Of a DNA stretch of 39,178 nucleotides, positions 20,669 to 26,940 are shown piece by piece. The stretch is taken from positions 1-39,178 of the forward strand of contig CAYWJO010000033.1 of NCBI GenBank assembly GCA_964458565.1, in the 5' to 3' direction. Each line of letters begins with the position of its first letter. The first letter of the stretch is position 1. Origin of the DNA: an uncultured archaeon. GTDB taxonomy: Archaea; Asgardarchaeota; Thorarchaeia; Thorarchaeales; Thorarchaeaceae. A program made the translations under genes and the position numbers. A model generated the notes under the pieces. That model was not told the DNA's origin. It searched no databases and saw nothing but the letters and a program-made list of their open reading frames with translations.

Positions 20669-20696
20669 GGGGCTTTCGCCCCAACTTCCTTTTTTT
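20669..20696 (+). terminator. Hairpin plus T-run terminator between convergent genes
   Basis: GGGGC-TTTC-GCCCC followed by ...ttttttt. Confidence 0.65.
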
Positions 20697-22023
20697 ATTC
20701 TAAACGGGACCAGAGATTCTTAGCTGATTCTCTTGATATACCGGATATAACCTCGTCTGGCATGAGCGTCAACTTGCGATTCTCAACAACAACTCGACCA
20801 TTGACGATAGTATGCTTCACATCTCTTCCTTTGAATGTATTAACAAGATGTCCTATTATTGATGATTTAGTAATGGGTGTGGGCACATTGGTACTATCCA
20901 GAAGCACAATATCTGCTAATTTTCCCCGCTCTAGACTGCCAATTTTATCTTGAAGGCCATAACATTTTGCCCCATTTATTGTTGCCATGCGGAATATATC
21001 ATCGGGTTCGATGATGCTTGGGTTTCTTGTTGCCAATCTATGCTGAATATACGCGACTCTCATGTTCTCAAACGGATCATATATCCAGCCATCATTCCCA
21101 ATACCTACATTGATACCAAGTTCAAGCATTTCTGGTACCGGAGCAGTCCCAACAGCATTGAGCATATTTGACATTGGATTATGAGCAACTGATGCGCCTC
21201 TTTCCGCAATAATCTCAAGTTCGCGTCGATTCAAATGGACACAATGGGCTAAAACTGTTCTTGGACCTACTGCACCAAGTCGGTCAAGGCGTTCGACTGT
21301 CCGCTCTCCATACTTCTCCAGATTGTGATATAGATCAACGAGACCTTCAGAAGCGTGAATTGTCAAATGCATCCCGAGTGTGCTAGCTTCTCTTACAGCA
21401 CGTTCGATTAATTCATCAGACACTGTGAATGAGGCGTGAATGCTCATCATGATATTGGTGAAACACTCTGATACCTGACATCTACGTGCATATGATACTG
21501 CTTCATCTAGTCCACGAGACCCTTCTTCAATAGAATGCCTTTCAGTTATTTCGAATGCTAACATTGAGCGAATACCCACACTCTCAGTAGCTTTCATAAT
21601 TGTTTCAAGACTCCCTTCAATTGAATTTGGACCTGAATAGGTATCTGCGAAGAATGTAGAACCATTCCGGAGCATATCTGCAGACGCAGATAATGCACTT
21701 GCCTTAGCATCTTCAAGGGTTAGAGCCTCATCAACAGGCCACCAGACACGTTGCAGAATCTGAGCAAAATCTGTAGGAGGTTCAATATTTAGACTCGCAC
21801 CCCTTAAAAGAATACCATATAGATGAGTGTGTGCTGTTATTAATCCAGGAATGACCACATCACCATCAGCATTGATTACCTTATCAGCTGAGCGACTTGA
21901 TTGTCCTTGACCAAGTTCAACTATCTTGTTGCCTTCAATATAGAGAAAACCATTAGAAAATATTGTCCCCTGTTCATTGCCGGTAACAATGAACGCATTT
22001 TCAATTAATACACTGTTCACCAA
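20695..22023 (-). CDS. Amidohydrolase, SsnA / MTA-SAH deaminase-like
   Basis: PGLITAHTHLY, HASFT, IHASE, LAHCVH, HNPMSN, GND, GKLADIV. Confidence 0.9.
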   Translation of the reverse strand: MVNSVLIENAFIVTGNEQGTIFSNGFLYIEGNKIVELGQGQSSRSADKVINADGDVVIPGLITAHTHLYGILLRGASLNIEPPTDFAQILQRVWWPVDEALTLEDAKASALSASADMLRNGSTFFADTYSGPNSIEGSLETIMKATESVGIRSMLAFEITERHSIEEGSRGLDEAVSYARRCQVSECFTNIMMSIHASFTVSDELIERAVREASTLGMHLTIHASEGLVDLYHNLEKYGERTVERLDRLGAVGPRTVLAHCVHLNRRELEIIAERGASVAHNPMSNMLNAVGTAPVPEMLELGINVGIGNDGWIYDPFENMRVAYIQHRLATRNPSIIEPDDIFRMATINGAKCYGLQDKIGSLERGKLADIVLLDSTNVPTPITKSSIIGHLVNTFKGRDVKHTIVNGRVVVENRKLTLMPDEVISGISRESAKNLWSRLE

Positions 22024-22072: not shown

Positions 22073-23536
22073 TTAAAAATCAATATCAACATAGCTGATT
22101 GTACCTTTACTAGAACGGTAAATAGTACCCTCTTTTTCTAGCTGTGTGATAATATCCTTAAAATCAGATTCTGAGAATCCTTGTTCCAAAGCACGATTTT
22201 TGAGTTCACTAAGTTGAACGTCCTTTCCTGATTCTGTAGAAACTTGTTTGAGAAGGAGAATGAGCTGATCCGCTATCGACATAGAATCATCATATGAATC
22301 AGTGGATGTTATCTCAGATATGACCGAATCAACTGAAACATCAGTACTTTCCACTTCTTTCTTCGCACTTAGCAAAGCTGCCATTAAATCAAGTTTAGCA
22401 CCTGCGTCTGTTGATGGAGTTTCTTTTTCTTGAGTCGATTCAATATCAGATAGACTAACTCCCTCAAATTCTGAATCCTCATCTTCATTCATAACTGGTA
22501 TTGGATCCATTTTTTCTATCGAAACACCCAACCACTTGGAATCGATGTCTTCGTTTTTTGAAGCAGCTCTAAGAAGATGGCTTCGATATTTCTTTTCTAT
22601 GCGTTTGCGTTGATCTTCCAGATGAGTACCGTCGCACTCAACAGCGCCTAATGTGAGGAGTATACGTTCTGCGAAATTCCGGATTGCAATTCTTGAATCC
22701 GTAAGAATATAACTAAGTATCTTAAAGACTGCAGAAAATCGAGATTCTTTGATGTTAAGGTGCTCAAGAAACCTCCTTTTCACCTGCCAATCAGTGTCCG
22801 CTATAATTTCCATTACTAGACCGCTGGATGACGTTATACCAACCCGACCAATCGCCTCTGCAACAAGAGCACGATTTTTCCAATCACTACTACTTAGAAA
22901 TGGTGCTAGAAGTCTTACCGTACTTGAATCAACAATTTCACTGAGAAACGGCAATAAATCTATGCGGTCCTTCGCAGCTTGTACCGTAAGCAATTTTATG
23001 ATCTTTATCTGGTCATTCTCTGGATATGATTTAATATTGGGTAGAGAACCAGGTTTTATGTCCGCTATTCGATTCTTAATCAATTTACGAATCCAATTTA
23101 ATCCATGTTTTCCAAAGTAAGACATGATTCCAACAACAGTAGGTTGATGTTCGTTTCCTAATTTGTCTAGAACAGAAATCCAAAGAGCCTGCTCCTCTTT
23201 TGAATAGGGTGCACCATAAATTGAAAAACGCTCTTCAATTGCATGCAGAACTTGTTCTCGTTCAGCGGGATTGATTTCCTTCAATTCATCAAATAGGGCA
23301 TCGATGTAAGTTCCGAAAGCATTTTGACCTGCAAGTCTGAAAACAAGTTTTCTAATGAATGGGTCCTCCGCAGTTAGAAGGGACATTGCCTTTGGGAGAA
23401 GAGACCTAGCTATTCCTTGTTCTACAAGTGAACCTCCAGCAGAGTACATTATCTGCATGTCAGGAGAATCTAAATTGCGAGCGATACTGGCTAGTTTCTT
23501 TATCTCTGCAAGTTCAGGATGTTTTATCCTTGACAA
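22073..23536 (-). CDS. HEAT/alpha-solenoid repeat protein with acidic linker and C-terminal winged helix
   Basis: HEAT-like units (LTAEDPFIRK; FLSSSDWKNRALVAEAIG; IIADTDWQVKR; ILTDSRIAIRNFAERIL). C-terminus LSELKNRALEQGFSESDFKDIITQLEKEGTIY resembles MCM/RPA32 C-terminal WH. Confidence 0.75.
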   Translation of the reverse strand: MSRIKHPELAEIKKLASIARNLDSPDMQIMYSAGGSLVEQGIARSLLPKAMSLLTAEDPFIRKLVFRLAGQNAFGTYIDALFDELKEINPAEREQVLHAIEERFSIYGAPYSKEEQALWISVLDKLGNEHQPTVVGIMSYFGKHGLNWIRKLIKNRIADIKPGSLPNIKSYPENDQIKIIKLLTVQAAKDRIDLLPFLSEIVDSSTVRLLAPFLSSSDWKNRALVAEAIGRVGITSSSGLVMEIIADTDWQVKRRFLEHLNIKESRFSAVFKILSYILTDSRIAIRNFAERILLTLGAVECDGTHLEDQRKRIEKKYRSHLLRAASKNEDIDSKWLGVSIEKMDPIPVMNEDEDSEFEGVSLSDIESTQEKETPSTDAGAKLDLMAALLSAKKEVESTDVSVDSVISEITSTDSYDDSMSIADQLILLLKQVSTESGKDVQLSELKNRALEQGFSESDFKDIITQLEKEGTIYRSSKGTISYVDIDF

Positions 23537-24433
23537 TTATTTCTTCCACCCACTCTTCATTTTCTTCTTTTCGCGTCTCTTTGCAGCTCTTTCGCGAGGT
23601 TTTGATTTGGATTTGGTTTGCGGTTCTTCGAAAAATTCAGTTAATGGCTTTTGCACACCCTCTATTTCCTTCTCTTTCTCCCTTTCATGGGGTATTTCAA
23701 TATCTTCAACAGGTTTACCGTTGAGTGTGACTTGTTCTGTAGGACCTGTCGAGATTTCAACATCACTACTTTCAAGTTCTAATTCCACTAGTGTTAGATC
23801 TAATGCTTCCTGAAGCGTTGTGAAGCGTGGATCTGTACTCGTCAGTTCATCTTCAGATATTCCTTGTTCACGTAGTAACTTGCGTCCAATCTTAGATCGA
23901 TGGAGTTTCTTGAGCAGAAGGTATTCAGTTCCCTTTCTGTTCTCAATTTCTGGCCGACCCCTCCTAAATACCTCAATCTGAGATTCGACCAAGTCAGCTA
24001 CCAAGTATGAAAAACCGTCATGCTCAAGACCTTTTGCATCTAAATGATAAACATCCAACTTTGATATCAACCGCGAAATGAGCATCGAGCAATGGGACCG
24101 TATCTTTCGTCTTGCTTCTTTCCATGATTTTTGTTTTGTAAAAATCTCAATCAATTCTTCAGTTGGAACATCAAGAGCTAAGCTAAGGGAGAGCATATCG
24201 AGTGCACCAAAAAAAGAATCTCGAACTAACATCAGGTTTTTAGGTTTCTCATCATCTTCAATTACATCATCAAGAATTGAATGGATTCTATGCCAAGGGT
24301 GAAGTTTCTTGTCTTGAAAGAAGGTGGTTAGCGACTTAGTAATTCCAAAAATATCACCCCGTCGACTAAGCTCAAGGGTATTTTGTAGGAATTTCAAATC
24401 CGATTTCCTTACAGATATACCCTTTTTAGGCAG
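23537..24433 (-). CDS. Hypothetical protein with C-terminal PIP box and basic tail (probable CTG start at 24433)
   Basis: QKPLTEFF at 23630-23653. The frame extends 12 codons upstream of the track TTG to CTG CCT AAA, preceded by AGGAGA. The stop abuts the next start (TAA-TTG). Confidence 0.75.
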   Translation of the reverse strand: MPKKGISVRKSDLKFLQNTLELSRRGDIFGITKSLTTFFQDKKLHPWHRIHSILDDVIEDDEKPKNLMLVRDSFFGALDMLSLSLALDVPTEELIEIFTKQKSWKEARRKIRSHCSMLISRLISKLDVYHLDAKGLEHDGFSYLVADLVESQIEVFRRGRPEIENRKGTEYLLLKKLHRSKIGRKLLREQGISEDELTSTDPRFTTLQEALDLTLVELELESSDVEISTGPTEQVTLNGKPVEDIEIPHEREKEKEIEGVQKPLTEFFEEPQTKSKSKPRERAAKRREKKKMKSGWKK

Positions 24434-24785
24434 TAGAAGTCATCTCCTTAACTGTTAGTTACTCACAATTCTATCGTTAATGCTTTTCTATGATTGTGTT
24501 ATTGATTTAACGAAATCTAGGATTTAATGTTATCAAGATATCTGAATTTAAATTTGGTATGATTTGAATCATTTGAGAGATTATTTTACAATATGAGAAA
24601 TCATGAACATGAATTGATAATACCGAAGACACCTTATTTTGTGAAAACCGGGTATTGGATGAGAGACCTCTCGAGAAAAAATATGGAATTAGTGACTTTT
24701 ATCACCAGAAAATAACAACCATTATTAATAATATGCAAATTTCGATATTAAATTCCAATAAAAACAAGAATAGAGGAGTAATAGA

Positions 24786-25980: not shown

Positions 25981-26940
25981 CTAACCAAGAGCACCTCGGA
26001 TTCTAGCATGTTCATTCTTGAATCTGACTTCTATAAATGAGTTTAATTCACCATATTCAGGATTATTGAGTTTCGGTTCAAGAACTGTTTTGAATTCCCA
26101 GCTTCCATCGTCAATTGGCCGCATCTGTACTAAACCAATACCAAAACGTTTTGCCTCTGTGAGTATATACTCTGCATTTGAGTCACTTCGCAAGAAATCC
26201 TCATCTTGAACCCATTCAAAAACAAGGTACGATCTATGGCAAACGACCATCATCGATGCAGCTTCGTAAACAGCGGAGAGGGTCAAATCCCCATATTTCT
26301 TAACCTCTATTGTTATTAATTCGAGAATATTTCCGGGTACAAAATCATAATTCATGATTGTGAGTATGGATAGATCTGGAATACTGGTAATACCTATTCT
26401 AGGGTATTGTTTTGCAGTAATCTCAGAGATATACAGATTCGGAGGGGAAGGTTCGTAATTGCGCTTCCATTTCCTATCAAAATATGCCTTCACAGGATCG
26501 TATAATTCTGATTCATCAGCCACACCAAGTTCAGCATCGCTATCATAAAGAATACCATTATCATTTCCTTCTTGAACACGTGCTGTACGACCGTATCTAC
26601 CACGACCGATAACTACCATACCCTCATCTATCATTTCTGCTTGTATTGCGGCGAATTCTTCTGGTGTCATGCTAAGTGGTTCGTAAATTTTATTGTTTGA
26701 AACAAACGAACCGTCACGCGGCAGTCTAGCTAAAATTTGTTGTTTTTTGGTTCCTGTTCGTCTGATAGGTCCTCCTCGACCACGACCTATTTGAGCTAAT
26801 CCGAGATCAACAAGTTCCTTCTTCGCTCGTGTATATCCAGGATCACGTAGTCCACTTAGTTTCCTTAATCGGCGATCTGTAATATAATCCAAAGACGGAG
26901 GAAGATGTTTCTCAAGTATCTGAGCACTTTCTGACAACAA
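25981..26940 (-). CDS. Tandem winged-helix + PD-(D/E)xK nuclease-like protein
   Basis: Two repeats ending GRGRGG / GRGRYG; C-terminal ESELY..PDL..IEVK..YEA..HRSYLV..GIGL restriction-endonuclease-like pattern. Confidence 0.65.
   Translation of the reverse strand: MLSESAQILEKHLPPSLDYITDRRLRKLSGLRDPGYTRAKKELVDLGLAQIGRGRGGPIRRTGTKKQQILARLPRDGSFVSNNKIYEPLSMTPEEFAAIQAEMIDEGMVVIGRGRYGRTARVQEGNDNGILYDSDAELGVADESELYDPVKAYFDRKWKRNYEPSPPNLYISEITAKQYPRIGITSIPDLSILTIMNYDFVPGNILELITIEVKKYGDLTLSAVYEAASMMVVCHRSYLVFEWVQDEDFLRSDSNAEYILTEAKRFGIGLVQMRPIDDGSWEFKTVLEPKLNNPEYGELNSFIEVRFKNEHARIRGALG

Follow-up and report, generated by a model that had tools for sequence, protein, structure and literature searches.

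A conserved gene pair of the Thorarchaeaceae encodes a candidate PCNA client and a HEAT-repeat protein with an MCM-type winged helix

Two abutting genes, here called P1 and P2, were found on the minus strand of a 39,178-nucleotide stretch of DNA from an uncultured Asgard archaeon of the family Thorarchaeaceae (contig CAYWJO010000033.1 of GenBank assembly GCA_964458565.1). This whole stretch, referred to as the window, corresponds to contig C33 in a genome of 3.7 Mb and 93% completeness. The two genes form a fixed cassette that is inherited vertically and is laid out as in translational coupling. P1 combines a folded domain with a flexible tail, in which a short motif resembling the PCNA-interacting peptide (PIP) of clamp-binding proteins is followed by a very basic stretch, and P2 combines a HEAT-type solenoid with a winged helix of the MCM type. 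We judge the chances to be about even that the two proteins form a DNA-bound complex, specific to the Thorarchaeaceae, that is tethered to PCNA. This reading builds on the domain anatomy of both proteins, the conservation of the motif, the linkage of the genes, the exchange of DNA-binding modules at the gene junction and the likeness of the motif to those of known clamp clients. The features of the pair are as follows (pLDDT, the predicted local distance difference test score, refers to AlphaFold2 models):

23537-24397, minus strand: gene of P1, 286 amino acids (aa), TTG start, belonging to no Pfam or NCBIfam family
23756-24397, minus strand: folded N-terminal domain of P1, residues 1-214, modelled with a pLDDT of ~96 over residues 1-210
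23717-23740, minus strand: tail motif T-E-Q-V-T-L-N-G of P1, residues 220-227, conserved among the P1 orthologs
23630-23653, minus strand: PIP-like motif QKPLTEFF of P1, residues 249-256, located in a disordered segment and recognised from the ortholog consensus
23540-23629, minus strand: basic tail of P1, residues 257-286, net charge +10, likely a non-specific DNA-binding element
22073-23536, minus strand: gene of P2, 487 aa, with a TTG start adjoining the P1 stop
22502-23536, minus strand: HEAT/ARM-type solenoid of P2, residues ~1-345 (PF13646), modelled with a pLDDT of ~90
22286-22501, minus strand: acidic disordered linker of P2, residues 346-417, with the conserved motifs D-P-I-P and E-G-V-S-L-x-D, both short
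22352-22402, minus strand: isolated amphipathic helix within the linker, residues 379-395, K-L-D-L-M-A-A-L-L-S-A-K-K, as modelled by AlphaFold2
22076-22285, minus strand: C-terminal MCM-type winged helix of P2, residues 418-487, recognised by structure and profile matches

The pair had been picked out in an earlier reading of the letters alone (the sequence-only reading), and all the sequence features described there are present on the minus strand where it placed them. Position 24433, which it gave as the end of P1, holds a CTG in frame; the open frame extends to 24439, and the first ATG, GTG or TTG within it is the TTG at 24397. The TAA stop of P1 (23537-23539) is followed directly by the TTG of P2 (23534-23536), as had been claimed. 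This abutting start is credible because the first 25 residues counted from the TTG line up with a block that is conserved at the N-terminus of 43 orthologs. In 9 of the 15 inspected loci the two open reading frames (ORFs) directly adjoin each other or share 1-4 nt. Within the window P1 and P2 also share one frame, so that positions 22073-24439 read as a 788-aa frame with a single TAA between the two genes. A read-through fusion as a conserved feature was ruled out by the out-of-frame overlaps in other genomes, and the shared frame is probably a coincidence.

The distribution of the pair was studied by profile searches for both proteins in 400 genomes of the phylum. Full-length P1 and P2 are limited to the GTDB family of the window, and neither was found at full length in any of the ~315 other Asgard genomes. 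Within the family, P1 is present in 66 of the 85 other genomes, and of the same 85, 82 have a match to P2 at E<=0.001. About 70 of these 82 hold full-length or contig-truncated orthologs, the remainder being weak matches to the winged helix only. Matches of the P2 profile outside the family likewise cover the winged helix only and lie mostly in frames the size of MCM. An exhaustive HMMER search with P1 recovered only 39 representatives among 1.84 billion proteins, and the homologs that bear a source name are from Candidatus Thorarchaeota. In all ~60 genomes in which both genes are whole they are adjacent and on the same strand, with P1 first. The linkage that the sequence-only reading had proposed to check is therefore found in every family genome with a complete pair. 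The C-terminal part of the P2 profile also picks up a group of small stand-alone proteins of ~141-156 aa, composed of an N-terminal Cys4 zinc ribbon and an MCM-like winged helix, which occur in several Asgard families other than the Thorarchaeal one (loci L023-L027, e.g. G004:C1:2582838-2583305).

The model of P1, built by AlphaFold2 with 37 sequences, is of low confidence in the tail: from residue ~231 on the pLDDT is mostly below 60 (in the 40s and 50s), dropping below 50 at residues 236-239 and 253-283. Two conserved islands stand out from the variable background of this tail. One is the T-E-Q-V-T-L-N-G stretch, where Q222 and G227 are invariant and T220 and T224 are conserved to at least 90%; it is modelled with moderate pLDDT and beta-bridges, and it is kept even in P1 proteins that have lost the second island. 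That second island is the PIP-like motif, which lies 30 residues from the C-terminus in a disordered and accessible segment, between 25 residues with a net charge of -4 and 30 residues with a net charge of +10. It appears in 34 of the 37 orthologs with the family consensus Q-x-x-L-T-[ED]-[FY]-[ILV], Q249 being conserved at 92% and L252 at 95%, among flanking columns with 15-35% identity. The sequence-only reading had described QKPLTEFF as an exact match to the PIP-box consensus within an acidic disordered region that gives way to a very basic tail, and had proposed its conservation as a check; the description was accurate, and the motif proved to be kept throughout most of the orthologs.

PIP degrons of the Cdt1/p21/Set8 type are defined by T-D at positions 5-6 together with a basic residue at +4. 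P1 departs from this definition, having T-E at these positions and Q260 at +4; a lysine follows the motif at +3 or +4 in several orthologs. The archaeal PIP consensus has been given as QxxLxxFx (PMC7776575). At position 8 it is this archaeal form, and not the strict eukaryotic pattern, that the motif of the P1 family fits.

The genome of the window encodes one PCNA (G000:C5:124985-125296), and several of its replication and repair proteins carry a motif of the same style, at positions that are listed as PIP sites in a review (PMC7776575):

PolD DP2, C-terminal end: QTSLTDFF
Nre, C-terminal end: QTRLTDF
Fen1, C-terminal end: QSSLDDFF
Family-Y polymerase, C-terminal end: QVLLTQFY
RNase HII, C-terminal end: QSRLDRF
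PolB, near the N-terminus: QPSLEDFI

Judged by its sequence, the P1 motif cannot be told apart in kind from these. Like the archaeal clients PolD DP2, Fen1, Nre, RNase HII and the family-Y polymerase, P1 has, in a terminal segment that is disordered, a short peptide of the form Q-x-x-L-x-x-F-x. It differs from them in that it lacks a recognisable enzymatic or otherwise known domain, in that its motif is not terminal but is followed by the basic tail, and in that some of its orthologs have no motif; clamp binding of P1 is, moreover, a prediction. Two further proteins of the same genome carry motifs of this kind. A 314-aa DUF2797 protein (G000:C56:2095-3039; L030) ends in QAGLEEFF, in the style of Fen1 and PolD, and is a candidate PCNA client. 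A 688-aa protein that belongs to no Pfam family (G000:C2:28212-30278; L033) has QKRIARFF at residues 16-23, and its gene lies ~3.7 kb upstream of the gene of a family-B polymerase (C2:33999-36809).

The second line of evidence is the fate of the basic tail. In 31 of 34 orthologs the motif is followed by a tail of 20-50 residues with a net charge of +6 to +21 and without sequence conservation. In genus g15 (loci L009 and L038; protein P0104) P1 retains the motif and carries a tandem helix-hairpin-helix, (HhH)2 (HHH_5, E 2.9e-10), in place of the basic tail. In genus g10 (locus L036; protein P0047) P1 ends just past the T-x-Q-x-T-L-x-G island and has neither motif nor tail; there, P2 starts with an (HhH)2 (HHH_5, E 1.9e-14), after which comes a basic stretch. 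A predicted non-specific DNA-binding module is thus always located at the junction of P1 and P2, on one side of the stop codon or the other. The exchange for (HhH)2 argues that contact with DNA is the task of the tail, and the appearance of the module on either protein at one and the same junction suggests that P1 and P2 act as one unit.

P2 was correctly described in the sequence-only reading as a 487-aa protein of HEAT-like repeats, an acidic linker with an isolated helix, and a C-terminal winged helix similar to that of MCM or RPA32. The repeats score just above the Pfam cut-off for HEAT_2 (PF13646; 28.4 bits versus 27.7), and 40 of the 44 members of the family match. AlphaFold2 models residues 1-330 as a solenoid, and residues 88-135 of P2 make up a conserved patch. 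A specific family for the solenoid was sought, and only generic ARM/HEAT matches were obtained: designed armadillo proteins, importins, PP2A-A-like effectors, Integrator and condensin subunits, all with a root-mean-square deviation (rmsd) of 6-13 Å. The neighbours of the solenoid according to a protein language model are prokaryotic HEAT_2 proteins (HEAT_2/PBS-type repeats). The eukaryote-like architecture that had been proposed for it has to be abandoned in view of these prokaryotic repeats, the generic matches with high rmsd and the restriction to one family.

In the linker the pLDDT falls below 50 at residues 353-377 and 396-413, that is, on both sides of the modelled helix, and G359, L362 and D364 are conserved to at least 90%. 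The helix itself has an L-x-x-A-L core, in which L384, A387 and L388 are invariant in 44 sequences. An NCBIfam MCM match at residues 373-482 raised the possibility that this helix corresponds to the helix preceding the winged helix in MCM; hhalign and BLAST back the winged helix alone, and the candidate was dropped.

The winged helix itself is of the MCM type by its modelled fold, without being a certified member of that family. Residues 418-483 superimpose on the winged helix of the Methanothermobacter thermautotrophicus MCM (2ma3) with a Z-score of 10.3 and an rmsd of 1.4 Å over 66 residues, the best of the small-domain matches listed, and 2m45 follows with a Z-score of 9.4. In line with this, the P2 family profile matches the winged helix of the S. 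solfataricus MCM (2m45; E 7e-4) and the C-terminus of the MCM encoded in the same genome (hhalign E 1e-4). Matches to MCM_C, the MCM8 winged-helix domain or RPA_C are found in 10-11 of the 44 members (E<=0.01). On P2 itself MCM_C (PF21100) reaches 14.3 bits, below the gathering cut-off of 27, and RPA_C (PF08784) reaches 19.9 bits, below 22.6; the part upstream is a HEAT solenoid and not an OB fold. The domain thus shares with the MCM C-terminal winged helices (PF21100/PF21120; 2ma3, 2m45) the fold and a weak but consistent profile similarity, and it differs from them in being joined through an acidic linker to a HEAT solenoid instead of an AAA+ helicase. A Pfam scan found no MCM or AAA+ domain in P2, and the genome encodes its MCM by a gene of its own on contig C5 (G000:C5:92356-96039). 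In that gene, a 1228-aa frame, the MCM Pfam domain is matched in two parts ~1.5 kb apart, which suggests the insertion of an intein; the genes of the small and large RFC subunits come after it (C5:96838-99069).

The folded part of P1 (residues 1-210) is modelled as nine helices and a beta-hairpin, with a long helix at the C-terminal end, and no relative of its fold could be recognised in Pfam, the PDB or BFVD. Foldseek gave no match at E<=0.001 against the PDB and BFVD, and a scan independent of Foldseek (VIA wide) of 48,161 chains gave a best Z-score of 4.5, which is far under the noise level for helical proteins. P1 also had no match in Pfam, NCBIfam, the PDB sequences or PADLOC, and the ESM Atlas returned scores of at most 0.81 and no relative. 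Longer proteins were sought with the P1 profile and none was found, which is weak evidence of their absence. The structural check proposed in the sequence-only reading thus gave no fold match for P1 and only generic ones for the solenoid of P2.

The only relatives of P1 are paralogs inside the same archaeal family. Residues 59-189 share homology with a domain of HEAT-containing proteins of ~415 aa (hhalign probability 96.9, E 2e-10, 125 columns), of which the genome of the window has one:

G000:C5:43002-44255 (L019:1453-2709), minus strand: ~415-aa paralog, with the P1-like domain at residues ~90-215 followed by HEAT repeats

This paralog family is confined to the same GTDB family, being present in 72 of the 85 genomes. 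It shares with P1 the core domain and the taxonomic restriction, and it differs from P1 and P2 in being a single chain with neither a PIP-like tail nor a winged helix. Weaker matches to the domain were obtained in HEAT proteins of ~690 aa and in LRR proteins of 705 aa from related organisms (L006, L005). By these profile comparisons the P1-like domain looks like a lineage-specific domain that has repeatedly been joined to solenoids. The possibility that P1 and P2 are a split version of the ~415-aa paralog was rejected: only the P1-like domain is common to both, and no specific similarity was seen between the HEAT parts.

Taken together, these data are compatible with a mechanism in which the folded domain of P1 would be the structural core, presumably touching P2. 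The flexible tail would offer a PCNA-interacting peptide of the form Q-x-x-L-T-[ED]-[FY]-h (h, hydrophobic) and, next to it, a Lys/Arg-rich non-specific DNA binder, and the two would jointly park the complex on clamp-loaded DNA. The HEAT solenoid of P2 would act as a docking platform, and the MCM-derived winged helix on its long acidic tether may contact a further protein partner or DNA. The binding to PCNA and to DNA, the contact between P1 and P2 and the biological role are all predicted from sequence features. If the motif does bind PCNA, P1 would be a previously undescribed clamp client with an unmatched core domain, and its scaffold partner would re-use the winged helix of MCM. The pair would then represent a lineage-specific elaboration of the replisome or chromatin toolkit of archaea in the Asgard group, which is the closest to the eukaryotes, and the interchange of basic tail, PIP and (HhH)2 at one gene junction would be a natural experiment in the swapping of DNA-tethering modules. 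Its importance is limited, as it concerns one family, from uncultured organisms, with no evidence of eukaryotic ancestry.

Several observations weigh against a tether to PCNA. An aromatic residue at position 8 occurs only in the copy of the window, the norm in the family being I, L or V. The strict PIP pattern is matched 46 times in the 3457 ORFs of the genome versus 42 times in shuffled sequences, so that a single strict match is at chance level and the motif owes its significance solely to its conservation. The motif is absent or degenerate in genome G323, in genus g10 and in three of the 37 representatives, and docking to the clamp is therefore not indispensable; the losses in g10 and G323, where the pair and its DNA-binding element stay, mean that the clamp motif can be dispensed with in some lineages and temper the PCNA reading. 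The T at position 5 and the E or D at position 6 (each in 32 of 34 orthologs) are more fixed than a PIP requires and could point to a different receptor, and P1 has no recognisable relative that would point to an activity. It is possible, albeit with clearly lower probability, that P1 and P2 form a DNA or chromatin complex in which the peptide docks on P2 itself (HEAT groove or winged helix) or on some other partner specific to the lineage, its likeness to a PIP being a convergence on a short amphipathic 3-10/helix motif. Solenoids often bind extended or short helical peptides, and peptide-binding ARM proteins are among the generic matches of P2. On the other hand, T-D or T-E at positions 5-6 is used by PolD DP2 and Nre of the same genome as well, a disordered, near-terminal and basic-flanked placement is typical of clamp ligands, and positive evidence for another receptor is lacking.

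The genomic neighbourhood, too, weighs against a tether to PCNA. It includes a gene that is conserved downstream of P2 on the same strand:

20695-22023, minus strand: SsnA-like amidohydrolase (Amidohydro_1, NF005540), downstream of P2, of doubtful membership in the module

The neighbours in the window are metabolic (the SsnA-like and a second amidohydrolase, an aminotransferase, MmgE/PrpD and others), and neither the window nor any of 12 related loci was found to hold replication genes. Of the two-protein scaffold acting at the replisome that the sequence-only reading had envisaged, the link to DNA and the replisome gains from the (HhH)2 swaps, the client-like motif and the MCM-type winged helix, and the metabolic neighbourhood offers it no backing. 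We regard it as quite unlikely that the pair is instead a regulatory or sensor module of an amidohydrolase operon, in which the winged helix would be that of a transcription factor and the HEAT repeats would sense a ligand or partner, without a role at the replisome. The order and strand of P1, P2 and the amidohydrolase are indeed kept in 12 of 13 loci (the window and 12 from other genera). The spacer between P2 and the amidohydrolase is 49 nt long, with a Shine-Dalgarno-like GAGG, and since it lacks an oligo-T run co-transcription is possible. Winged helices are, in addition, common in archaeal regulators, and those of the Crp/GntR type are among the weaker matches of P2. However, the best matches of the winged helix are MCM C-terminal domains and not regulators, and such a module would not account for the PIP-like motif, for the basic tail or for the exchanges with (HhH)2, features that speak for DNA binding of a non-specific kind. 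The gene order is treated here as inherited synteny and not as functional evidence, because all the genomes belong to one family and because the pair persists in G323 without the amidohydrolase next to it.

Two further readings involve a comparison with eukaryotic systems. That it is a true homolog of the kleisin-HAWK or the fork-protection (Timeless-Tipin) pair seems highly improbable. A small partner with an alpha-solenoid is a superficially similar architecture, and the structural matches include solenoids of condensin, Pds5 and importin with Z-scores of 9-11, but these are generic, have an rmsd of 6-13 Å and are no better than the matches to designed repeat proteins. P1 shows neither kleisin winged helices nor another known fold, sequence relatives are confined to one archaeal family, and the repeats are of the prokaryotic HEAT_2 type. 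Family and fold searches gave no kleisin assignment for P1, although a distant relationship may escape fold lists, and no SMC gene was present among the scanned neighbours in the window. Rather unlikely as well, but compatible with a tether to PCNA, is a replisome coupling hub specific to the Thorarchaeaceae. In it, P1 would fasten the complex to PCNA and to DNA, and P2 would display an MCM-derived "decoy" winged helix and a linker helix that may bind it as RPA32C binds helical peptides. By engaging a reader of the MCM C-terminus the complex would couple clamp-loaded DNA with the machinery of the helicase or the origin, in analogy to eukaryotic Ctf4 and fork-protection hubs by function and not by ancestry. 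In concept, the favoured PCNA-tethered complex resembles the eukaryotic HEAT proteins and adaptors that are recruited by PCNA, such as the cohesin loader Scc2/NIPBL (PMC10497406), in that a PIP-type peptide would bring an alpha-solenoid to clamp-loaded DNA. The Thorarchaeal pair differs in that there is no homology, in that peptide and solenoid reside on two translationally coupled proteins, and in its confinement to one archaeal family.

Elsewhere in the neighbourhood, a 319-aa protein without a Pfam or NCBIfam match is encoded upstream of the pair (25981-26940, minus strand). On the other side, the SsnA-like gene at 20695-22023 is part of a longer conserved order: in the window and in loci L007-L018 the pair is followed, in nearly all genera of the family, by the SsnA-like gene, by a gene on the other strand for a small membrane protein and by one for an Amidohydro_2 protein.

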